A program made the translations under genes and the position numbers. DNA of 45,103 bases, from the NCBI GenBank assembly GCA_949012915.1, contig CARLBU010000004.1:79314-124416 (forward strand), given 5' to 3'. Positions 2,521 through 17,244 of the stretch are shown here, one piece after another. How positions within the stretch are numbered: position 1 is the stretch's first letter; each line of letters starts with the position of its first letter. The notes beneath the pieces were generated by a model. The model was not told the origin of the DNA. It saw only the letters and a program-made list of their open reading frames with translations, and did no database searches. This DNA comes from an uncultured Lachnospiraceae bacterium (GTDB lineage: Bacteria; Bacillota; Clostridia; Lachnospirales; Lachnospiraceae).

Positions 2521-4791
2521 ATGATGAGTAACACAACAAAAGAAAAGGGCAAAATTTCAATTATTGCACCACTATCTGGAACGATTGTTGCATTGGAAGA
2601 AGTGCCCGATCCAGTGTTTTCGGAGAAAGCATTGGGAGATGGAGCTGCCATTTTGCCGGAGGACGGAAAGATTTATAGTCCTGTCAACGGAACTGTTGCA
2701 TCAATTGCTGCAACAAATCATGCATATGGGTTTCAATCGGAGGACGGGTTAGATGTCCTGGTACATGTCGGACTGGAAACGGTTGGATTAAATGGAGAGG
2801 GATTTACTCTCTATAAGAAAGAGGGGGACCTGGTAAAAGTAGGAGATTTGGTAGCAGAAGCGGATTTAGAATTGATCAAGGGGAAAAATTTGAATTTAAT
2901 TACTCCGGTGCTTTTGTGTGACGGAATGGACGGAAAGCAGATGGATGTGTGTTCCGGTAAAGTACGGGCAGGAAAGGATGCGGTATTGCTGGTAACGGAG
3001 GAAACGGCGGCTACTGTAGAAGAAAAGGAAACAGGTAGGGATGTTGTTTCGACAGAAACAAAGAGTGCAGGGCAAACGGTATCTGAAAAGAAACAGGAGA
3101 CTTCTGCTTCTAAGACGGCTTCTTCGGGGGGTTCGGAGAAGAAGGCGGGAATTAATTTTGATTTTCTGCAGAAATTGGGAAAAGTGCTGATGACGGTTAT
3201 TGCGGTAATGCCGGCAGCAGGACTGATGCTTAGCCTTGGAAAACTGATTCAGATGGGCGGGGCAGAGATTCCTTTTATTTTCACAATCGGCAGTACAATG
3301 GAGAATATCGGATGGGCGATTATTAACAATCTGCATATTTTATTTGCGGCTGCAATCGGCGGTTCTTGGGCAAAAGAACGTGCGGGAGGTGCATTTGCAG
3401 CGATTATTTCATTTATTTTGATTAACTGTATTACAGGAGCTGCTTTTGGTGTGACCAGCGGAATGTTAAATGAGTCTGGAGCAGTGGTTACTTCTCTTTT
3501 TGGACAGGAAATGCTGGTAGAAAATTATTTTACTTCTGTACTGGGGGCACCGGCTTTAAATATGGGAGTATTTGTAGGAATTATTGCCGGATTTGTAGGT
3601 GGTGTTGTCTATAATAAGTTTTATAATTTCCGTAAATTGCCGGATGCGTTATCATTTTTTAATGGGAAACGGTTTGTACCTTTAGCTGTTATTGCTTATT
3701 CTACAGGAATTTCTCTTGTTTTGGCAGTGATATGGCCGATTGTACAGACAGGAATTAATTCGTTTGGTGTATGGATTGCCAATTCTTCTTCCTCTTCTCC
3801 GGTTTTGGCACCGTTTATCTACGGAACGTTAGAGAGGCTTCTGCTGCCTTTTGGTCTGCATCATATGCTGACCATTCCGATGAATTATACTTCTTTCGGA
3901 GGAACTTATCTAATTCAGACCGGAATCAATGCGGGATCGGAAGTATTTGGACAAGATCCGCTTTGGCTGGCATGGGTAACAGATTTAATTAATTTTAAGG
4001 ATGCAGGAAATATTGCTGCTTATGAAAATTTATTGAATACGGTAACACCGGCTCGTTTTAAGGTGGGACAGATGATTGGTTCAACTGGTCTGCTTTTAGG
4101 AGTGGCACTTGCTATGTATCGGCGGGTGGATGAAGATAAGAAAAAGAATTATCGTTCTATGTTTGTTTCAACTGTGTTAGCAGTATTTTTAACCGGTGTA
4201 ACGGAGCCTTTGGAATTTATGTTTATGTTCTGTGCACTGCCGCTTTATATTGTCTATGCTGTACTGCAGGGGTGTGCGTTTGCAATGGCAGGTATTTTCG
4301 ATCTGCGGCTTCATTCTTTTGGAAACTTAGAATTTTTAACTCGTGTTCCAATGTCATTAAAAGCGGGATTAGGCGGGGATATTATTCATTTTATTATCTG
4401 CTGCGTTGCTTTCTTTGCGATTGGATATGTGATTGCTTACTTTATGATTGAAAAGTTTCAATTTGCTACGCCGGGACGTCTGGGAAATTATACAGATGAA
4501 AATGAGGAATCAGGCGGAGAGGCAGCGGCTTCTGATTCTGCGAAAAAGGGCGGACAAAACAGCCAGCCAGAGCGGATTATTGCGTTATTAGGCGGTCGGG
4601 AAAATATTATTTTAGTGGATGCTTGTATGACACGTTTAAGAGTAACGGTAAAGAATCCAGAACAGGTTGCAGATACTGCTGCATGGAAAGCAGAAGGAGC
4701 ACTGGGGTTGGTGAAAAAGGACAATGGAATTCAGGCAATCTATGGACCGAAAGCAGATGTATTAAAATCGGATATCAACGATATTCTTTAA
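2521..4791 (+). CDS. PTS glucose/maltose-family transporter; fused EIIA-EIIC-EIIB
   Basis: The N-terminal ~150 aa is an EIIA-Glc domain (..GDGAAILPEDGKIYSPVNGTV..HVGLETVGLNGEGF..). An ST/K/E-rich linker follows, then a multi-TM EIIC domain. The C-terminal EIIB carries the phospho-Cys motif ACMTRLRV. Confidence 0.85.
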   Translation: MMSNTTKEKGKISIIAPLSGTIVALEEVPDPVFSEKALGDGAAILPEDGKIYSPVNGTVASIAATNHAYGFQSEDGLDVLVHVGLETVGLNGEGFTLYKKEGDLVKVGDLVAEADLELIKGKNLNLITPVLLCDGMDGKQMDVCSGKVRAGKDAVLLVTEETAATVEEKETGRDVVSTETKSAGQTVSEKKQETSASKTASSGGSEKKAGINFDFLQKLGKVLMTVIAVMPAAGLMLSLGKLIQMGGAEIPFIFTIGSTMENIGWAIINNLHILFAAAIGGSWAKERAGGAFAAIISFILINCITGAAFGVTSGMLNESGAVVTSLFGQEMLVENYFTSVLGAPALNMGVFVGIIAGFVGGVVYNKFYNFRKLPDALSFFNGKRFVPLAVIAYSTGISLVLAVIWPIVQTGINSFGVWIANSSSSSPVLAPFIYGTLERLLLPFGLHHMLTIPMNYTSFGGTYLIQTGINAGSEVFGQDPLWLAWVTDLINFKDAGNIAAYENLLNTVTPARFKVGQMIGSTGLLLGVALAMYRRVDEDKKKNYRSMFVSTVLAVFLTGVTEPLEFMFMFCALPLYIVYAVLQGCAFAMAGIFDLRLHSFGNLEFLTRVPMSLKAGLGGDIIHFIICCVAFFAIGYVIAYFMIEKFQFATPGRLGNYTDENEESGGEAAASDSAKKGGQNSQPERIIALLGGRENIILVDACMTRLRVTVKNPEQVADTAAWKAEGALGLVKKDNGIQAIYGPKADVLKSDINDIL

Positions 4792-7828: not shown

Positions 7829-7994
7829 TAAAAGTGTAGAAAAAAGTGTTATTTGGGATGAAAAAGTGGTATAGTAGGATAAGAATAGTTTTGTTTGCAT
7901 TTATAAATTTGCGTTTGCAGAGATAGTAGAGGATAGAAAATTGGGTTTTGATAATGGGTATTATGTTGAAAGGTGTAGAGGGGGAAGTTTGCTG

Positions 7995-8687
7995 ATGGGA
8001 GAAATAGGAATGGAATGGAATCGATATAGGATTATGATAATAGAAGATGATCAGGGGATACAGGTACAGTTAAAAAATTTATTGGCCGGAAATGGATATG
8101 AAGTGGCTACGGTTGCGGATTTTTCTAAGACGATAGAGGAATTAAAGGTTTTTGCACCGCATTTGGTTCTTTTGGATATCAAACTGCCGGAGAAGAGTGG
8201 GTTTGAATTGTGTTCGCAGATTCGGGTTTTTTCGGATATGCCGATTGTATTTGTAACGAGCAGCAATACGGATATGGATGAGTTAAATAGTATTATGCTG
8301 GGGGGAGATGCATTTATTACAAAGCCTTATAATACCGCTATTTTGCTTGCGAAGATTGCTGCTTTGCTGCGGCGGGTGTATGCTTTTAAGCAGGCGGAGG
8401 TTTTTAGATGGAATGGGGCTGTTTTGTATTTAGAAAGCAGTCGGATAGAGTATCGGGGACAAAAAGCGGAATTAACGAAAAATGAGTTAAAGATTCTTTT
8501 TTATCTTTTTAAAAATGCGGGGAAGATTTGTTCTCGTAATGATATAGTGGATTTTCTTTGGGATAATCGACTCTATATAGATGATAATGCTCTTAGTGTG
8601 AATATGACTCGGATTCGTGAGAAACTGGCAGCAATCGGTTTGAAGGATTTTATTAAGACGAAGCATAGGCAGGGGTATTTGTTATGA
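7995..8687 (+). CDS. OmpR/PhoB-family response regulator (BceR-like)
   Basis: A receiver domain (IMIIEDD..LLDIKLP) plus a winged-helix DNA-binding domain. The first ATG in the ORF is at 7941; start 7995 is chosen because it follows the SD agagggggaa. Its stop overlaps the kinase start (ATGA). Confidence 0.85.
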   Translation: MGEIGMEWNRYRIMIIEDDQGIQVQLKNLLAGNGYEVATVADFSKTIEELKVFAPHLVLLDIKLPEKSGFELCSQIRVFSDMPIVFVTSSNTDMDELNSIMLGGDAFITKPYNTAILLAKIAALLRRVYAFKQAEVFRWNGAVLYLESSRIEYRGQKAELTKNELKILFYLFKNAGKICSRNDIVDFLWDNRLYIDDNALSVNMTRIREKLAAIGLKDFIKTKHRQGYLL

Positions 8688-9706
8688 ATGGAGGACAGTA
8701 TTGGAAGAATCTGCTGCCGGTTATTTTTATCAATCTTTTGGGTATGCTGGTGCTGGCTTTGTTTTTAATGGCTAATGGGAATGTTGTTTCGGTTGTTTTG
8801 TTTATTGTAGTTGTTTGGACAGTGGTTTTTATTTTTTATGTCTGTGTTCTTTATGGTATAAGAAAAAGATATTTTCGTCAGTTGTTAGAGACGGCGGAGC
8901 AGTTAGAGGAGCGGTATTTAATACCGGAGGTGATTGCTGTGCCAAAGAGAGCAGGGGAACAGGTGTTTTATCAGATTATGAAACTGGCGGAAAAGTCGAT
9001 GCTTGAAAAGATTGGTGAGGTGCAGAGGGAGCGAAAGGAGTATAAAGAATATATTGAACAGTGGATTCATGAGGTAAAAACGCCGATTACCGCAATAAAG
9101 CTGATATGTGTAAATAATCGGTTTGAGTTTACCAGGGATTTGCTGGCGGAATTGGAAAATGTAAATCGGTTTACAGAGCAGACCCTCTATTATGCCCGCA
9201 GTGAACATACAGAAAAAGATTATTTGATTCGGGAAGTTAGGCTTGGGGATATGGTACATGAGGCGATTGGGGAGAATAAATATCTTCTTCGGCAAAGCAA
9301 TATGACGGTTCTAGTGGATGAGATGGAATATTGTGTTTATACCGATAGTAAGTGGGTGCAGTTTATTTTGAATCAGATTATTAGTAATGCGGTAAAGTAT
9401 CGTACCGAGCAGCCGGTGCTGCATTTTTTTGCAGCAGAGAAAAAGGGGCAGGTGGTTTTGTATGCAGAGGATAATGGGATGGGCATATCGAAAGGGGATT
9501 TGTGCCGTATTTTTGAAAAAGGATTTACCGGGCAGAATGGGAGGAGGGTTTCTAATTCTACTGGTATGGGGCTGTATCTTTGCAGACGTCTTTGTGATAA
9601 GTTAGGAATTGGATTGGCTGTAGATTCGGAAGATTCGGAAGAAAAGGGAACTATGGTGTCCCTTTCTTTTTATAGAAATGACTTTGTGGATGGAGTGCAG
9701 AATTGA
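8684..9706 (+). CDS. Sensor histidine kinase (BceS-like intramembrane-sensing type)
   Basis: Two N-terminal TM helices with a minimal extracellular loop, an H-box HEVKTPITAIKL, and an HATPase_c domain (..DNGMGIS.., ..GTGMGLYL..). Confidence 0.85.
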   Translation: MNGGQYWKNLLPVIFINLLGMLVLALFLMANGNVVSVVLFIVVVWTVVFIFYVCVLYGIRKRYFRQLLETAEQLEERYLIPEVIAVPKRAGEQVFYQIMKLAEKSMLEKIGEVQRERKEYKEYIEQWIHEVKTPITAIKLICVNNRFEFTRDLLAELENVNRFTEQTLYYARSEHTEKDYLIREVRLGDMVHEAIGENKYLLRQSNMTVLVDEMEYCVYTDSKWVQFILNQIISNAVKYRTEQPVLHFFAAEKKGQVVLYAEDNGMGISKGDLCRIFEKGFTGQNGRRVSNSTGMGLYLCRRLCDKLGIGLAVDSEDSEEKGTMVSLSFYRNDFVDGVQN

Positions 9707-9823
9707 TCGGATGGATCGATTCTGCACTTCTTACATTTTTGTAAGAAGTGTGTAAGGAAACTTGATACCAAAATGTTTGCAGGTTCGTTATAATAAGAGC
9801 AGAAAAAAGGAAAAGGAGAGAGA

Positions 9824-10612
9824 ATGTATATGATTTTAGAGTTGGAACATATTCAAAAATATTATGGAAATAAAGGAAATCTGACAAAAGCGATTAAAGA
9901 TATTAGTTTTTCGGTGGAAGCAGGTGAATTTCTTAGTATTATGGGAGCTTCTGGTTCCGGGAAAACAACACTGCTTAATTGTATCTCTACGATTGATACG
10001 GTAAGTGCAGGTCATATCTATTTGGATGGAACAGATATAACGGAGATAAAGCCAAAGTCGCTTGCTCGGTTTCGCAGAGAAAATTTGGGTTTTGTGTTTC
10101 AAGATTTTAATTTGTTGGATACACTGACCATTTCCGAAAATATTGCATTGGCACTGACAATTAATCGGATGCCTGCAAGGATGATTGAGAAAGCTGTTTT
10201 AGAAATGGCAGAACAGTTGAATATTTGTGATATTCTTGATAAATATCCTTATCAGGTATCTGGAGGGCAGAAGCAGCGTTGTGCCTGTACCAGGGCAATG
10301 ATTCATAAGCCGAAGCTTTTGTTAGCGGATGAACCGACCGGGGCTTTGGACAGTCATTCGGCACAGATGCTGTTATCTACGATTCAAGGGATTCATAGAC
10401 AGATTGGAACAACGATTTTAATGGTGACACATGATGCTTTTACAGCTAGTTATGCTGAGCGGATTTTATTTTTGCAGGATGGGGAAATTTTTATGGAATT
10501 GTATAAAGGGAGTGACAGCAGAAGTGCCTTTTTTCAAAAGATTTTAAATGTGCTGACTATGATGGGAGGAGGAAAGAGTCATGTATGTGAAACTGGTTTT
10601 TCGAAATGCTAA
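9824..10612 (+). CDS. ABC transporter ATP-binding protein (BceA-like)
   Basis: Walker A GASGSGKTT, signature SGGQKQR and Walker B LLLADEP. Confidence 0.9.
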   Translation: MYMILELEHIQKYYGNKGNLTKAIKDISFSVEAGEFLSIMGASGSGKTTLLNCISTIDTVSAGHIYLDGTDITEIKPKSLARFRRENLGFVFQDFNLLDTLTISENIALALTINRMPARMIEKAVLEMAEQLNICDILDKYPYQVSGGQKQRCACTRAMIHKPKLLLADEPTGALDSHSAQMLLSTIQGIHRQIGTTILMVTHDAFTASYAERILFLQDGEIFMELYKGSDSRSAFFQKILNVLTMMGGGKSHVCETGFSKC

Positions 10613-12794
10613 GCGGTCGGTAAGGGATTATTTAGTTTATGTTGTAACTATGACGATATGTGTAACGCTGTTTTATTCGTTTTTGTCTATTTCCAGCAGA
10701 TATTATAAGCCGGATATTGGAAGTGAGTATGATTTTACGATGCTTAGTGACGGAATGAAAGCGGCCGTCTGTATGATTACATTGTGTTTGGCTTTTTTAA
10801 TCTGGTTTGTGAATCGATATATGCTGCAGCGGAAGCAGAAAGAGTTTGCCCTTCAGTTGATTATGGGAATGGAGCAAAAGACGGTTGCGGGGCTTTTCTT
10901 TGCGGAAACGCTGATAATGGGAATGATTTCTATCGGACTGGGAATTTTTTTTGGTGTGTTTTGTTCTCAGTTTATTACGGCAATGTTATTGACTTCTTAT
11001 GGGAAAACGTATCAGTTGGCATGGACACTGTTTCCAGATACGGTATTGCTGACGGCAGTGTTTTTTATTTTAAGTTTTTTTGCAGTGGGAAGTTTGAATA
11101 CTTATATGATTCGAAAGACGAAAATTGTTGCGATGCTTTCGGCGGATAGAGAGAATGAGCCTGAATTGAAGAAGAGCCGTTGGATTTTTGCAGTGGTGAG
11201 GATTTTCGAAGGATTTATGCTTTGGAGACTTATAACTGGGATACGGAAGGTTTGGTTTTATTATGACAGCCGTTTTGCTGTTCCTGTACAGGTTATGTTC
11301 TGGGGGAATCTTTTTTTTCCGGCTGTTACATTAGGCTGCTTTTTATTGTGGATTGTCCGAAGGAAAAAAAGAAAGGATTCTTCCTTACTTTTGGGACTGT
11401 TGGTGTGTTCGGTTTGTAATGCTTTTTTGGCAGCCAGTGTACCGGGTATAATCCATCAATATTATCTGCCGTTGGGGTCGGGGATAAAAAATCAATATCT
11501 GGTGTTTCTTTTGGCGGATCTGCTGTTTTTTATCTGTGATTTGATCTATTTGGCAAGCGGTCAGATTGCCGCATGGAAGGAAAAGTCACCGGAACATAAG
11601 TATAATGGAGAAAATTTGTTTTTTTGGGGACAGATTATTTCGAAATTAAATACCACCAGTAAGACAATGACGCTGATCAGTATTACTTTAGTACTTGCGA
11701 TTGTGATGTTTATTGCGGCACCTATTTTAACAGGTTGGGCTTCTGGATATTTGGACAGCCGTTCGATGTATGATGTGCAGATTTTTTCCAGATATAATCA
11801 GGTCTATCAAGAAGAATATTTGCCGCAGGATGACTATTTGCTGGCAAGTGATTTTTTGGGAGAGCATAGGATCGAGATTGCTTCTGATTGTACCTTTTAT
11901 CTGTATTTACCTAAGAAAGAAGAGTTTCATAATCGGAAGAAATATGAATTTCCTGCTGTGGCGATTTCTCTTAGTGATTATAATAGGATACTGACGATGT
12001 TAGGGAAAGAACCGATTTTTTTAGAGGAGAATGAATTTACAACACAGTGGAAATCCGTTGCAGCAAAGGAGGAACGGGACGATTTTCTTAGAGAACATAC
12101 CCATATCCTAACAGATGCCGGGGAATTGACGCTTTCAGAAGAGTCTTATTATCAGCATGAAATCGGACAAACGGTTTACAATTCCTATACCAATGTTTTG
12201 TATGTCTTTCCAGATTCGATTTGTGAAAGTTTGCTTCCGGTTATGCGGGATCGCTATATTCTAACAGAGAGAGGGATTTCTTATGCGGATGCTTGTAAAT
12301 TGGAAAGGGAATTTATAAAAGAATATCCCGAGCAGACAGAGAATGGCACAGCATATGGAATTCGTTTGCGTACCCTGCAGATAAATGGTACAAAGGCCAA
12401 TAATTTTGTTCTGCAGGCGGGGATGATTTATGCTGCCGTTGTGTTGATGGTAATCTGTCTTACCATACTTTCTCTGCAGCAGCTTTTGGATGCAGGGCAG
12501 TATCGCTATCGTTTTTCCGTACTTCGAAAATTGGGAGTGGAAGAGCAGAGAATCAAAAGACTTGTATTTCGGCAGTTAGGAGTGTGGTTTGGACTTCCCG
12601 TTGTTGTTGCAGTAGGGGCGGCTGTCGTTGTGCTTGTTTACTTTGTTCAGACGATATCGGCAGAAATTTCGGCATATATTGGGAGTAGGGCACTGCTGAT
12701 ACAGATAGGTGCAACTGGGGGAATTCTTATGCTGCTGCTGATTTGTTATTTTATTAGTACTTGGATTTTATTTCAGTACTCTATTAGTGAATGA
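10581..12794 (+). CDS. ABC transporter permease, FtsX family (BceB-like, large extracellular domain)
   Basis: 737 aa; the N-terminus MYVKLVFRNAKRSVRDY is typical of BceB-type permeases. It has ~10 TM segments with a long loop, and overlaps the ATPase gene. Confidence 0.85.
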   Translation: MYVKLVFRNAKRSVRDYLVYVVTMTICVTLFYSFLSISSRYYKPDIGSEYDFTMLSDGMKAAVCMITLCLAFLIWFVNRYMLQRKQKEFALQLIMGMEQKTVAGLFFAETLIMGMISIGLGIFFGVFCSQFITAMLLTSYGKTYQLAWTLFPDTVLLTAVFFILSFFAVGSLNTYMIRKTKIVAMLSADRENEPELKKSRWIFAVVRIFEGFMLWRLITGIRKVWFYYDSRFAVPVQVMFWGNLFFPAVTLGCFLLWIVRRKKRKDSSLLLGLLVCSVCNAFLAASVPGIIHQYYLPLGSGIKNQYLVFLLADLLFFICDLIYLASGQIAAWKEKSPEHKYNGENLFFWGQIISKLNTTSKTMTLISITLVLAIVMFIAAPILTGWASGYLDSRSMYDVQIFSRYNQVYQEEYLPQDDYLLASDFLGEHRIEIASDCTFYLYLPKKEEFHNRKKYEFPAVAISLSDYNRILTMLGKEPIFLEENEFTTQWKSVAAKEERDDFLREHTHILTDAGELTLSEESYYQHEIGQTVYNSYTNVLYVFPDSICESLLPVMRDRYILTERGISYADACKLEREFIKEYPEQTENGTAYGIRLRTLQINGTKANNFVLQAGMIYAAVVLMVICLTILSLQQLLDAGQYRYRFSVLRKLGVEEQRIKRLVFRQLGVWFGLPVVVAVGAAVVVLVYFVQTISAEISAYIGSRALLIQIGATGGILMLLLICYFISTWILFQYSISE

Positions 12795-12902: not shown

Positions 12903-12931
12903 TTGCTTTTGTTTATGCTGTTTAGTAGAAT
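12903..12931 (+). promoter_or_regulatory. Candidate sigma-A promoter TTGCTT-17-TAGAAT reading rightward into the invertible segment
   Basis: Judged from the hexamers and 17-bp spacer only. It lies just upstream of the left recombination site. Confidence 0.3.
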
Positions 12932-12960
12932 AGAAAAGGAAGATACTTTATAAAAAATAA

Positions 12961-12995
12961 AAATACAACACTTGTTAGTAAAATGTTGTATTTTT
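12961..12995. other. Left recombinase core-type site: two ~14-bp inverted arms around the 7-bp spacer GTTAGTA
   Basis: aaatacaacacttGTTAGTAaaatgttgtattttt. Its reverse complement is nearly identical to the site at 13748-13784, so the two sites are in inverted orientation. Confidence 0.6.
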
Positions 12996-13015
12996 ATATT
13001 TTTTATATCGGTGTT

Positions 13016-13044
13016 TTTATAAAATACTTTATAGCGTTTTTGAA
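13016..13044 (-). promoter_or_regulatory. Candidate outward-facing promoter on the minus strand (TTCAAA-17-TATAAA) at the left end of the invertible segment
   Basis: Read on the minus strand: TTCAAAaacgctataaagtatttTATAAA. In the present orientation it reads leftward, away from csrA-flagellin. After inversion it would read toward them. Confidence 0.3.
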
Positions 13045-13073
13045 TTTTTTTAAATTTTTTATTTTTCAAGGGA

Positions 13074-13116
13074 AATGCCGCTTATCCTCTGTCGATAAGC
13101 GGCATTTTTTTTTGTG
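13074..13116 (+). terminator. Intrinsic terminator: GCCGCTTATC-ctctgtc-GATAAGCGGC followed by T9
   Basis: A perfect 10-bp stem is followed by a 9-T run on the plus strand. It lies inside the invertible segment, between bceB and the recombinase 3' end. Confidence 0.75.
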
Positions 13117-13122
13117 ATTGGA

Positions 13123-13713
13123 TTAGAGTGTAATTTTTAAATACACTTCATCTCTTTCGTCTTGTTCAATACTTAAATATCGCTTGGTAATGCTGTAGGA
13201 GGAGTGATTGTAAAGATCCATTAAAAGGGCTGGAGGGGTTCCCTGTTTCCACGCATGATAACCGAATGTCTTCCTTAGAGAGTGGCAGCTGATATGTTGA
13301 TCCAGTCCAGATGCTTTGGCAGCAGTACAGATAATTCGGTAGGCTTGAGAACGACTGATTGGCTCATTCTTTCCTTTCTGACTTAAGAAGAGATACTGCT
13401 CTTTTTCATAGGGTTTTTCCTGGAAGGAATACGAGAGGTAGTTTTTTAGGGTGGTGCAGATAGAGCGGTTTAATGCAATCGTGCGGGATTTTCCAGTCTT
13501 TTGTTCTATTACTTCTAAATGTTTTTTCATGGTTTTAGTATGGTCATCATAGATATCGTTCCATTTTAATGTGAGAATATCGGAGATTCGCAGTGCTGTA
13601 TTTAGTCCCAATATAATCAGGGTATAGTTTCTTGGCTGAGGTTTTTGCAGCAAATAATAATTTTTAAATTGGTTCAGTGCATCTTTGCTTTTAATAGGCT
13701 GTGTTGTGCTCAT
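13123..13713 (-). CDS. Small tyrosine site-specific recombinase (catalytic domain only, FimB/FimE-sized)
   Basis: 196 aa with catalytic residues in order: R in ..LNTALRISD.., K in ..KTGKSR.., HxxR in ..HSLRKTFG.., H in ..LYNHSS.., and Y in ..ITKRYL... There is no N-terminal core-binding domain. Confidence 0.8.
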   Translation of the reverse strand: MSTTQPIKSKDALNQFKNYYLLQKPQPRNYTLIILGLNTALRISDILTLKWNDIYDDHTKTMKKHLEVIEQKTGKSRTIALNRSICTTLKNYLSYSFQEKPYEKEQYLFLSQKGKNEPISRSQAYRIICTAAKASGLDQHISCHSLRKTFGYHAWKQGTPPALLMDLYNHSSYSITKRYLSIEQDERDEVYLKITL

Positions 13714-13747
13714 GATAGATCCTCCGTTCGTTGAATTTTGCTTTCTT

Positions 13748-13784
13748 AAAAATGCAACATTTTACTAACAAATGTTGCATTTTC
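13748..13784. other. Right recombinase core-type site: aaaatgcaacattt-TACTAAC-aaatgttgcatttt
   Basis: 14-bp inverted arms flank a 7-bp asymmetric spacer. It is the inverted partner of 12961-12995, and the two bracket the recombinase gene. Confidence 0.6.
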
Positions 13785-13826
13785 ATATTGGCACAGAAGA
13801 CATGGAGAAAACAAGGAGGTTTTTAG

Positions 13827-14081
13827 ATGTTAAGACTGACTCTAAGTACAGAAGAATACCTGATGATAGGGGATAATATTAAGATTGCATTTTTAGGAGG
13901 CAGTAAAAGCCATCTTCGAATTCTGATTGATGCACCAAAGGAAGTCGGTGTAGTGAGAAGTAAAGTGATGGAACAGAACGTGCCGGAAGAAGAGAGGGGA
14001 TCTCTTCCTCAATATTATGCAGAACCGGAATTGGCAGAACGGTTTCGAAAAAAGAAATTTTCTTCGAAGGCAGGAAGCTAA
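13827..14081 (+). CDS. csrA: Carbon storage regulator CsrA
   Basis: The N-terminus MLRLTLSTEEYLMIGDNIKIAFLGG..LRILIDAPKEVGVVRSKV matches the CsrA fold consensus (MLVLTRK..IGDDI..GIDAPK). It is immediately upstream of flagellin. Confidence 0.85.
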   Translation: MLRLTLSTEEYLMIGDNIKIAFLGGSKSHLRILIDAPKEVGVVRSKVMEQNVPEEERGSLPQYYAEPELAERFRKKKFSSKAGS

Positions 14082-14345
14082 AAGAAGAAGAGAGGTTATT
14101 TATTATGGTTAATAACCGAAAGCAGTCCGCAACAATCGGGCCCAAAAGCGGGATGCGATTCGGATTATTAAATTCGGAAAGAAATCAAAAGAAATGATAT
14201 TTGGTGGAAATCCGAGATAGATTTTTTAAGAAATGAGGTAAGACTTTTCTTACCAAAGCGGCAAATGGAGTTGACCGCATAACAAAGAAACGGCAAGGGA
14301 AAAGAAAAATGATGAAACAAGCCGTATTACAAGGAGGTATATTTT

Positions 14346-16038: not shown

Positions 16039-17244
16039 ATGAAGCTATTTATTTATGATTGGAATTTTATTACAAAGTATGATTTGTATAGAGCAATGCA
16101 GAAACAGGGGATTGAATATGATTTATTTAATTCAAAGTCAAATCCTAGAGTAAATTCACAAAGTAAGCAGTTTCGGGAGGATTTGGAAAAAGCCTTAGAT
16201 AATAAAAAATATGATGCAATTTTTTCTATTAATTTTTTTTTGGAGTTGGCAGAGGCAGCACATGCAAGAAATATACTTTATATTTGTTGGACATATGATA
16301 GTCCAGCCTTAGGCATAGCAAATGAAACTCATTTTTTTGACACCAATCGTATTTTTTTATTTGATTCTTCGGAATATGAGGAATTTCAGGAACATGGAGT
16401 AAAAAATATTTTTTATTATTTACCTTTGGCAGCTGATGCTAGACGTTTAAGTCGAATGAAACCTACTCCCATGGGAAGGATGAAATATCATGCAGATATT
16501 TCTTTTGTTGGGCAGCTTTATCAATCAGATATGGATAAAATGTTTCCCCTATTTGATGAATATGGTGCAGGCTATATTGCAGCACTGATTAATATACAGT
16601 TAAATGTTTATGGTACGAATTTTATTCAAGAATTAATTAATGAAAATCTTATTAAACGTCTATGCAATCAAAAAGTAACAGAAGCTTTATTGAAAAATTT
16701 GAATCATAATTTTTTTCATGATGTAGAAGAAGTAAAAAGTTGGGGATTGATTGCTTTTCTTTTAAAGGCAGTAACCAATAAAGAGAGAATACTTTTACTT
16801 ACACTATTGGCAAAATATTATCATGTAAAGTTGTTTACCATAAATAGTCCGAAACTTCCAAATGTAAAGATATGTGAACCTGTAGATTATAGATATGATA
16901 TGCCGCTTGTATTTAAGTGTAGTAAAATAAATTTAAATATTACATTGCGAAATATTCGCCGGGGTATCCCTCAGCGAGTGATTGATATTATGGGCTGTCA
17001 TGCATTAGCAATGACAAATTATCAAGAAGATTTAAATGAATATTTTAAAGACGGATAAGATCTTTTGATATATAGTTCTATGGAAGAGGCATTAGATAAG
17101 TGCAAATATTATCTAAGTCATGAAAAGGAAGCAGAAAAAATTAGACAAAACGGTTATAAAATTGTCAAAGATAAGTTTAGTTATGAACATCAATTAAATC
17201 GAATATGGGAACTCTCAGGTTTGAAAAACAAGTTATCAAAATAA
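16039..17244 (+). pseudogene. CgeB-like glycosyltransferase (DUF3880 family) interrupted by an in-frame TAA at 17056-17058. The same frame continues to 17244 and encodes the conserved C-terminus.
   Basis: Before the stop the translation is ..NEYFKDG. After it, ..DLLIYSSMEEALDKCKYYLSHEKEAEKIRQNGYKIVKDKFSYEHQLNRI aligns with the paralog's FKRDETLVYFTNPAEF..YQKLIEGHTYWHRI. The TAA sits where a Glu (GAA) is expected. Confidence 0.6.

Follow-up and report, generated by a model that had tools for sequence, protein, structure and literature searches.

Does the flagellin gene in this 45,103-nt stretch of DNA from an uncultured Lachnospiraceae bacterium (contig CARLBU010000004.1, positions 79,314 to 124,416; hereafter the window) answer to a promoter that can be turned around, and if so, what would turn it? 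An earlier note, made from the letters of the sequence, had proposed that a DNA segment carrying its own tyrosine recombinase lies immediately upstream of csrA and flagellin genes, and that its inversion would drive these two genes. The identity of both genes was confirmed by domain searches (PF02599 and the flagellin domains), and the proposed inversion is supported by the comparison of related loci described below. We consider it quite probable that the locus is a self-contained DNA-inversion (phase-variation) switch for the flagellin cassette and that the window holds this switch in its OFF state, with the promoter directed away from csrA-flagellin.

The segment between the two presumed recombination sites is ∼0.8 kb long and is bounded by a 43-nt inverted repeat (12954-12996 against 13747-13789, 88% complementary). 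Both copies of the repeat are themselves palindromic, with 14-nt arms flanking 7 nt (14-7-14), so that the two mutually inverted 35-bp sites with TACTAAC spacers described in the earlier note are indeed present, displaced by just 1 nt from the positions that it gave. The central heptamers, GTTAGTA and TACTAAC, are exact reverse complements and are asymmetric; the sites therefore have polarity and are mutually inverted. This is the simple core-site layout of tyrosine recombinases, in which inverted arms surround an asymmetric 6-8-bp overlap identical in the two partners; 11 nt of each arm are conserved throughout the family, and the 29-nt conserved core of the left site spans 12963-12991. The family consensus ATRCAACAYTT-N7-AARTGTTGYAT, with up to two mismatches allowed, matches the window exactly twice, at the left and right sites, and none of 100 shuffles of the sequence gave a match. 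The left site has an ACAAC...GTTGT variant of the arms (A for G); several related loci with paired sites have this variant too, at the site next to their promoter.

With the recombinase as query, species-representative genomes yielded 80 loci at 52-86% identity, and almost all of these belong to Lachnospiraceae (Roseburia, Agathobacter and Acetatifactor included). Searching related genomes for the site together with orthologous recombinases had been suggested in the earlier note; paired sites with reverse-complementary centres were found in 66 of the 80 loci, and in 63 of these the pair encloses the recombinase gene. An unbiased search for the best inverted repeat around each recombinase recovered like sites in most loci, and a pattern search that left the centre unconstrained as a rule found the GCAAC-N15-GTTGC palindrome exactly twice, once on each side of the recombinase gene. 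The arms are conserved across the family (ATGCAACAyTT / AArTGTTGCAT). The centres vary, with 39 distinct heptamers in 62 loci, and the agreement over the 7 positions is 6.98 between partner sites and 3.07 between non-partners; the definition of a pair allowed at most one centre mismatch, and the unconstrained listings show the same pairing. Tyrosine recombinases need homology in the overlap region for strand exchange, and heptamers that vary between loci but match within a locus are the pattern expected from such a requirement. In nearly every related locus csrA-flagellin lies directly outside one of the sites. The other, far flank is unrelated between species and has genes of housekeeping types (a convergent gene in 27 loci, a co-directional one in 17). 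The idea of a second conserved target there, as in a two-way toggle, was considered and rejected, given this heterogeneity and the presence of a second flagellin in few loci only.

A candidate promoter of the sigma-28/SigD type, laid out as TAAAGTAT-N11-CCGATAT, sits 10 nt inside the left site and reads leftward out through it, away from csrA-flagellin. Its sequence and spacing agree with the sigma-28/SigD (FliA) consensus, which has been given as TAAA-N15-CCGATAT in general and as TAAA-N16-17-MCGATAa for Butyrivibrio (PMC3720852). The pattern TAAA-N14-16-CCGATAW has this one match, with a spacing of N15, on both strands of the window. A position weight matrix built from 49 other loci, with the window excluded, scores the promoter at 35.0 bits, above the family median, and the next best site in the window at 9.5. 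A like promoter occupies the same place and direction in 50 related loci: the strict motif was found inside the segment, downstream of the recombinase on its strand, in 50 of the 80 loci, and in almost all of these it points outward and ends 19-23 nt before the distal site. Promoter positions that the search had left free are also conserved in the relatives (for example TAAAGTATT; G5, T6, T8, T9). In most related loci a TGTAA motif and a run of A are also conserved between the -10 box and the distal site, ∼7-11 nt past the -10 box, a stretch that may mark the transcription start region; the window lacks TGTAA, and its interval from the -10 box to the distal site is 3-4 nt shorter (16 nt versus 19-23 nt).

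The earlier note had placed an outward-reading promoter at the left end of the segment, pointing away from csrA-flagellin. Such a promoter exists, but the conserved one is of the sigma-28/SigD type and overlaps the TTCAAA-17-TATAAA that the note had chosen. This sigma-70-like sequence is present on the minus strand (13044-13016), with its -10 box in the non-conserved spacer of the sigma-28 promoter, and was rejected as the key promoter on that account. Between the right site and the flagellin start no sigma-28-like promoter was found, the best plus-strand matrix score in 13700-14345 being 2.9 bits, and the scan called no sigma-70-like site on the plus strand of 13784-14345. In the same interval, from proximal site to flagellin start, all 47 of the 47 OFF genome loci were likewise without a sigma-28-like promoter (maximum 7.7 bits, against 21.7-33.3 for the true promoters). 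A second sigma-28 promoter for csrA or flagellin was therefore discarded, and the flagellin genes depend on the invertible promoter, as far as can be judged from sequence. By geometry, inversion would place this promoter ∼90 nt upstream of the csrA start. The predicted arrangement is thus that of an inverton, in which one internal promoter would face csrA-flagellin in one orientation only and csrA-flagellin would have no other sigma-28 promoter.

Both orientations of the segment occur at orthologous loci of relatives, with the breakpoints in the core sites. At four ON loci (L012, L055, L059 and L072) the promoter faces csrA-flagellin, and 88-111 nt separate its -10 box from the csrA start. The segment is inverted between L059 and L069, whose flanks are 94% identical, and between L072 and the second cassette of L045, whose flanks are 97% identical; L172 and L126 have opposite orientations with both flanks present. 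The strongest case comes from two metagenome contigs (L150 and L134) set against the isolate Acetatifactor aquisgranensis DSM 110981 (L045): the flanks are co-linear and 97.7-99.6% identical, and the 683-nt segment, 98.4-98.5% identical, is inverted. In junction alignments of ON and OFF orthologues the flank, the outer arm and the heptamer are constant, and the two ends exchange their inner arm and interior with each other. The exchange point maps to the interval that separates the inner arm from the outer arm and spacer, and arm polymorphisms linked to a flank stay with that flank. Arbitrary orientation by the assemblers is an unlikely source of these differences, the repeats (at most 43 nt) being shorter than sequencing reads. 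The positions of the elements in the window are collected in Table 1.

Table 1. The switch and the genes that it would control, with positions in the window
Feature	Position	Strand	Details
Distal (left) core site	12960-12994		AAAATACAACACTT GTTAGTA AAATGTTGTATTTT; central heptamer 12974-12980, presumed crossover region
Sigma-28/SigD-type promoter (predicted)	13031-13005	minus	TAAAGTATTTTATAAAAACACCGATAT; -35 TAAAGTAT 13031-13024; -10 CCGATAT 13011-13005
Intrinsic terminator (predicted)	13073-13116	+	14-bp stem, 7-nt loop, T9; hairpin 13073-13107; dG -24.3 kcal/mol, z -4.9
Tyrosine recombinase, 196 aa	13123-13713	minus	catalytic domain only; PF00589 E 7.9e-32; ribosome-binding site GGAGGA 13725-13720
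Proximal (right) core site	13749-13783		AAAATGCAACATTT TACTAAC AAATGTTGCATTTT; central heptamer 13763-13769
csrA paralogue, 84 aa	13827-14081	+	PF02599 E 1.3e-16; first gene of the controlled unit
Flagellin, 527 aa	14346-15929	+	Flagellin_N and Flagellin_C domains; presumed phase-variable product

The recombinase matches Pfam PF00589 with 110.8 bits (cut-off 27.1) over residues 14-182. The full R-K-HxxR-H-Y set that the earlier note had read from its 196 residues holds up: R42, K72, H144-x-x-R147, H170 and Y179 complete the catalytic R-K-H-x-x-R-H/W-Y set and are invariant across the 80 homologues. PF00589 was the sole recombinase-family domain found, and no serine recombinase (resolvase) domain of the Hin/Gin/Cin type appeared in the domain scan. 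The same note had called the enzyme FimB/FimE-sized, and it does resemble these enzymes in size and fold, but its scores with the FimB/FimE models NF007370 and NF007371, 58.9 bits (cut-off 221) and 54.3 bits (cut-off 222), are far below what membership demands. Within NCBIfam it is distantly similar to 'tyrosine-type DNA invertase' (E 5e-16), and its best model is XerA-like, likewise under the cut-off; all family cut-offs were missed. Databases name it only 'tyrosine-type recombinase/integrase', and the family comprises at least 6020 clusters (90% identity) at E <= 1e-20. Since 35 nt, ribosome-binding site included, separate the start codon from the right site, the promoter of the recombinase gene must overlap the site or lie outside it. 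Read inward, central heptamers are TGTATAA-like at both ends; a -10 box of the recombinase within the core spacer is suggested by this, but the evidence was judged too weak and we make no such claim.

The csrA product scores under the cut-off of the NCBIfam CsrA equivalog. In the leader of the flagellin gene, GGA motifs lie within the loop of a predicted hairpin and at the Shine-Dalgarno sequence, and, by analogy with Bacillus subtilis, CsrA probably modulates flagellin translation; no known RNA families were found in the region.

In the mechanism that we propose, the recombinase would bind the two core sites through their 11-14-bp arms and exchange strands inside the identical asymmetric 7-bp centres. 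Because these centres are inverted relative to each other, recombination would flip the ∼0.8-kb segment; we infer that this recombinase is the catalyst and that the promoter is active and depends on sigma-28. In the OFF state the outward promoter, at the site far from the recombinase start, would fire to the left, in the direction of a convergent ABC-permease gene and its 3' end. With the promoter leftward and csrA-flagellin without a sigma-28 promoter of its own, the state is taken as OFF. In the ON state the inverted promoter, ∼90 nt upstream of csrA, would transcribe csrA-flagellin as part of the late flagellar class, only with the flagellar sigma factor active, and flagellin expression would change accordingly. 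The terminator, which is one-way and specific to this lineage, would in the OFF state shield csrA-flagellin and the recombinase antisense strand from transcription entering from the upstream ABC-transporter operon or from elsewhere on the left. Such switching is presumably still going on in this species.

Could the terminator itself be the switch? An external promoter on the left, either at 12903-12931 or that of the ABC-transporter operon, might drive csrA-flagellin by read-through, gated by the orientation of the terminator inside the segment. The terminator is strong and predicted to function for rightward transcription only, so that it would block such transcription in the present orientation, and the scan called no terminator between the end of the permease gene (12794) and the left site. 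To this extent the earlier note was right about a strong terminator, its hairpin and T9 run being confirmed. The switch architecture is conserved, however, and no hairpin between the recombinase stop and the promoter was seen in 56 of the 63 other related segments scanned, which makes the terminator a feature of the lineage rather than of the family design; as a general switching principle it was rejected. Moreover, a conserved external promoter is impossible where the far flank differs between species, and the one that the earlier note had placed at 12903-12931, a weak TTGCTT-17-TAGAAT, failed the criteria of the promoter scan; the mechanism proposed here is independent of it. Control by read-through is therefore very unlikely to be what throws the switch, and may be an auxiliary layer in this lineage.

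The more serious question is whether the proposed inversion switch still works in the species of the window, and several observations count against this. The genome loci with the full motif set divide into 47 OFF and 3 ON, plus L072; a pattern scan of metagenome contigs for the promoter and its adjacent site, in which either orientation is detectable, gave 112 loci, of which 88 were OFF, 6 ON and 18 uncalled; and over all assemblies OFF:ON is ∼135:10. Rarely used or decaying switches would produce just such an excess. The earlier note had looked to the presence of both orientations as a check. They were found at orthologous loci of relatives, but the contigs displayed for the window's own species have one orientation: inversion was not seen there, and all six contigs compared, of the 21 with an identical recombinase, share the orientation and sites of the window, in a look-up by exact recombinase protein that merges near-identical places. 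A species-specific 28-mer across the junction had no match in the metagenome-contig collection, and all 10 places that the exact-protein look-up gave for a second species were OFF. The ON examples are mostly from metagenome-assembled genomes (MAGs) or metagenome contigs, no promoter was identified for the recombinase, whose start codon is so close to the right site, and the case for promoter function and sigma-28 dependence is made by consensus and conservation.

Taken furthest, these points would make the locus the descendant of a working inverton that no longer flips in this species, its flagellin being permanently silent or expressed otherwise. The single orientation of all the same-species contigs seen agrees with this, as do the differences between the two sites at 5 of 43 positions and the existence of degenerate relatives, namely L209 with a single site and no promoter, L072 with mismatched spacers and several loci without a site pair. 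Yet the reading frames of the recombinase, csrA and flagellin are all intact, the recombinase keeps every catalytic residue, the central heptamers are identical, and many related loci with paired sites share the A-for-G arm variant of the left site. The promoter outscores the median of its family, and a consensus assembly reports the majority orientation only. We thus regard a locked switch as unlikely. Much less credible still is a mobile element, in which the sites would be the ends of an insertion sequence (IS)-like or integrative element inserted by chance beside flagellin; the earlier note had said that sites which proved to be the ends of a common IS-like insertion at many loci would argue against a dedicated flagellar switch. 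Terminal inverted repeats, an internal recombinase gene and a very large protein family fit this idea, but the element is present in one copy, with two sites in 45 kb and no direct-repeat target duplication at them, and the enzyme belongs to the tyrosine recombinases rather than to the transposases. Relatives have the element almost always beside csrA-flagellin and not at unrelated loci, the heptamers are locus-specific, and what distinguishes orthologous loci is the orientation of the element rather than its presence.

The neighbourhood of the proposed inversion switch has features of its own. To the left lie genes for a response regulator, a histidine kinase, an ABC ATPase and a 737-aa FtsX-type permease ending at 12794, and this module (7941-12794) resembles a BceRS/BceAB-type unit for peptide-antibiotic sensing and detoxification. 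The permease gene and the sigma-28 promoter of the OFF state converge, and antisense RNA to the 3' end of the permease could arise in this way. To the right of flagellin are DUF3880/glycosyltransferase genes and then a radical-SAM gene. The DUF3880/glycosyltransferase reading frame of the window (16039-17058) codes for 339 aa; contig L004 has it split into 339 + 59 aa, and other strains (L002, L005 and L006) have one 401-aa gene. The split is a probable frameshift in a putative flagellin-glycosylation gene.

Cultured carriers of the switch include A. aquisgranensis DSM 110981 (L045) and Roseburia sp. AM59-24XD (L052), and several variants were seen among the related loci. In three of them (L071 3919-4677, L067 156-934 and L052 ∼3840-4760) the recombinase, the sigma-28 promoter and the sites lie between two divergent flagellin genes, without csrA. 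The flagellin leaders and 5' coding parts of these loci form long inverted repeats (84 to >430 nt), and both sites of L052 have degenerate outer arms; inversion would shift the single promoter from one flagellin to the other, a true two-phase toggle. An Agathobacter-like minimal inverton of 133-166 bp contains only the sigma-28 promoter, has the heptamer CTTAGAG and has its recombinase adjacent or not nearby; it is ON in a GTDB MAG (L061 3748-3931) and OFF in 59 of 59 metagenome contigs (L094 and 58 others). Where a small inverton has an adjacent recombinase (L092, L102, L143, L152, L170 and L190), the OFF promoter faces the recombinase gene ∼70 nt downstream, which suggests that flagellar sigma activity could raise recombinase expression, and hence switching, specifically in OFF cells of this variant.

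Other segments are larger (1.8-2.5 kb) and have an extra gene between the recombinase and the promoter (L053 4542-5651, L079 4817-5797 and L088, with a segment of 2037 nt). By eye, the extra 369-aa protein of L053 is choloylglycine (bile-salt) hydrolase-like, and the 326-aa protein of L079 is a putative Rpn/YhgA-like transposase-like protein. In the ON locus L072 the two heptamers (sites at 3627-3651 and 4346-4370) differ, TTGGAAA versus TATGGAA, and the pair of its OFF orthologue in L045 is perfect; a spacer mutation may have locked L072 in the ON state, or the difference may be a sequencing error in a MAG. Ten contigs of one species (L209-L218) share one arrangement, in the order recombinase, single site ACAACGTTTTGGTACAAAGTGTTGT and 601-aa flagellin, with no partner site, csrA or recognisable sigma-28 motif; this looks like a descendant of the switch that has degenerated or become fixed.

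Among known systems the H segment of Salmonella (hin-hixL/hixR, fljBA) is closest in function and layout, being ∼1 kb long with an outward promoter at its end that drives a flagellin operon. As here, the recombinase gene (hin) lies inside the invertible DNA (PMC5903667). Hin, however, belongs to the serine invertases and requires Fis together with an enhancer, whereas the enzyme here is a tyrosine recombinase, and sites with 11-14-bp arms around a 7-bp overlap are unlike the hix sites. Most loci described here are ON/OFF for one cassette, whereas Salmonella alternates two flagellins, and the regulator gene precedes flagellin here and follows it in Salmonella. There, flagellin is co-transcribed with fljA, a post-transcriptional regulator of flagellin synthesis, the counterpart of which in the present locus is csrA. 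The Hin-like character noted earlier, with a tyrosine recombinase in place of Hin, thus applies to the architecture only. The FimB/FimE enzymes of Escherichia coli fimS (and MrpI of Proteus) resemble the present one in being ∼200-aa tyrosine recombinases, catalytic domain only, that invert the promoter of a surface appendage. The FimB/FimE genes lie outside their element, which measures 314 bp and combines a sigma-70 promoter with repeats of 9 bp; in the present locus the gene is internal, the core sites are fully palindromic and the promoter is of the sigma-28 type.

Flagellar phase variation by a tyrosine recombinase is already known from gut Clostridia in the flagellar switch (Cdi4) of Clostridioides difficile and its recombinase RecV (PMC5386303). 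Cdi4 is a promoterless element of 154 bp with 21-bp repeats (AAGTTRCTATWTTACAAAAAA) that acts after initiation in the leader of the flgB operon and affects the whole regulon including sigD, and RecV is encoded elsewhere and serves several switches (PMC5386303). The element described here differs from it in repeats, content, target and recombinase location: it carries a promoter and its own recombinase, and would control only a late-class flagellin cassette. The invertible promoters of Bacteroides (Mpi; Tsr-type) are likewise invertons for surface structures of gut commensals, many per genome and some with an adjacent tyrosine recombinase (references in PMC11602134). They differ in phylum, promoter type, recombinases and targets (capsules and fimbriae), and the Bacteroides recombinase lies outside the inverted DNA. 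In B. subtilis, according to work cited in PMC3720852, CsrA inhibits expression of flagellin (hag); a CsrA-family protein is genetically tied to flagellin in both cases. The csrA gene here, in contrast, is a cassette-linked paralogue with a product below the equivalog cut-off that would be co-transcribed from the invertible promoter, and there is no fliW in the window.

No published description of a Lachnospiraceae flagellin inverton was found in the full-text literature, a search that leaves out subscription-only papers and supplementary inverton catalogues; generic catalogues of invertons may list some of the small variants uncharacterised. The locus is well supported as a probable inversion switch built on a known principle, and can be regarded as the convergent tyrosine-recombinase counterpart of the Salmonella Hin segment. 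Beyond the single locus, one might imagine cassette-autonomous antigenic variation of flagellin throughout the family in gut Lachnospiraceae, in which each cassette would come with a sigma-28 inverton and a CsrA paralogue of its own, and usually with its own recombinase as well. Cassettes would flip independently without rearrangement of the chromosome, most would be silent in the gut, and CsrA, acting like FljA, would repress the other flagellin mRNAs, leaving a single flagellin type in production at any moment; the loci with two flagellins (L071, L067 and L052) would be toggles. We put this larger scheme forward tentatively and think it rather doubtful as a whole. Of the 6 multi-copy genomes examined, 5 have crossover heptamers that differ from cassette to cassette, and distinct heptamers would let the cassettes flip independently with the chromosome left in order.

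Some flagellin genes of Roseburia and Eubacterium have no identifiable promoter (PMC3720852). An invertible promoter would explain these promoterless genes. The compact 29-35-bp site with its freely variable 7-bp overlap may also serve as a source of orthogonal inversion modules. Flagellins of Lachnospiraceae are major targets of mucosal immunity, through TLR5 sensing, anti-flagellin immunoglobulin A (IgA) and CBir1-type seroreactivity in Crohn's disease. To our knowledge, the control of which flagellin these commensals display, if any, is poorly understood. A heritable and reversible switch, mostly OFF in assemblies, offers a testable mechanism for silent flagellin genes, heterogeneity of motility and immune evasion. 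Its state can be read from metagenomic reads and could be correlated with host inflammation or IgA coating. Experimental follow-up is warranted, because the switch is widespread among the dominant commensals of the gut and is linked to an immunodominant antigen.

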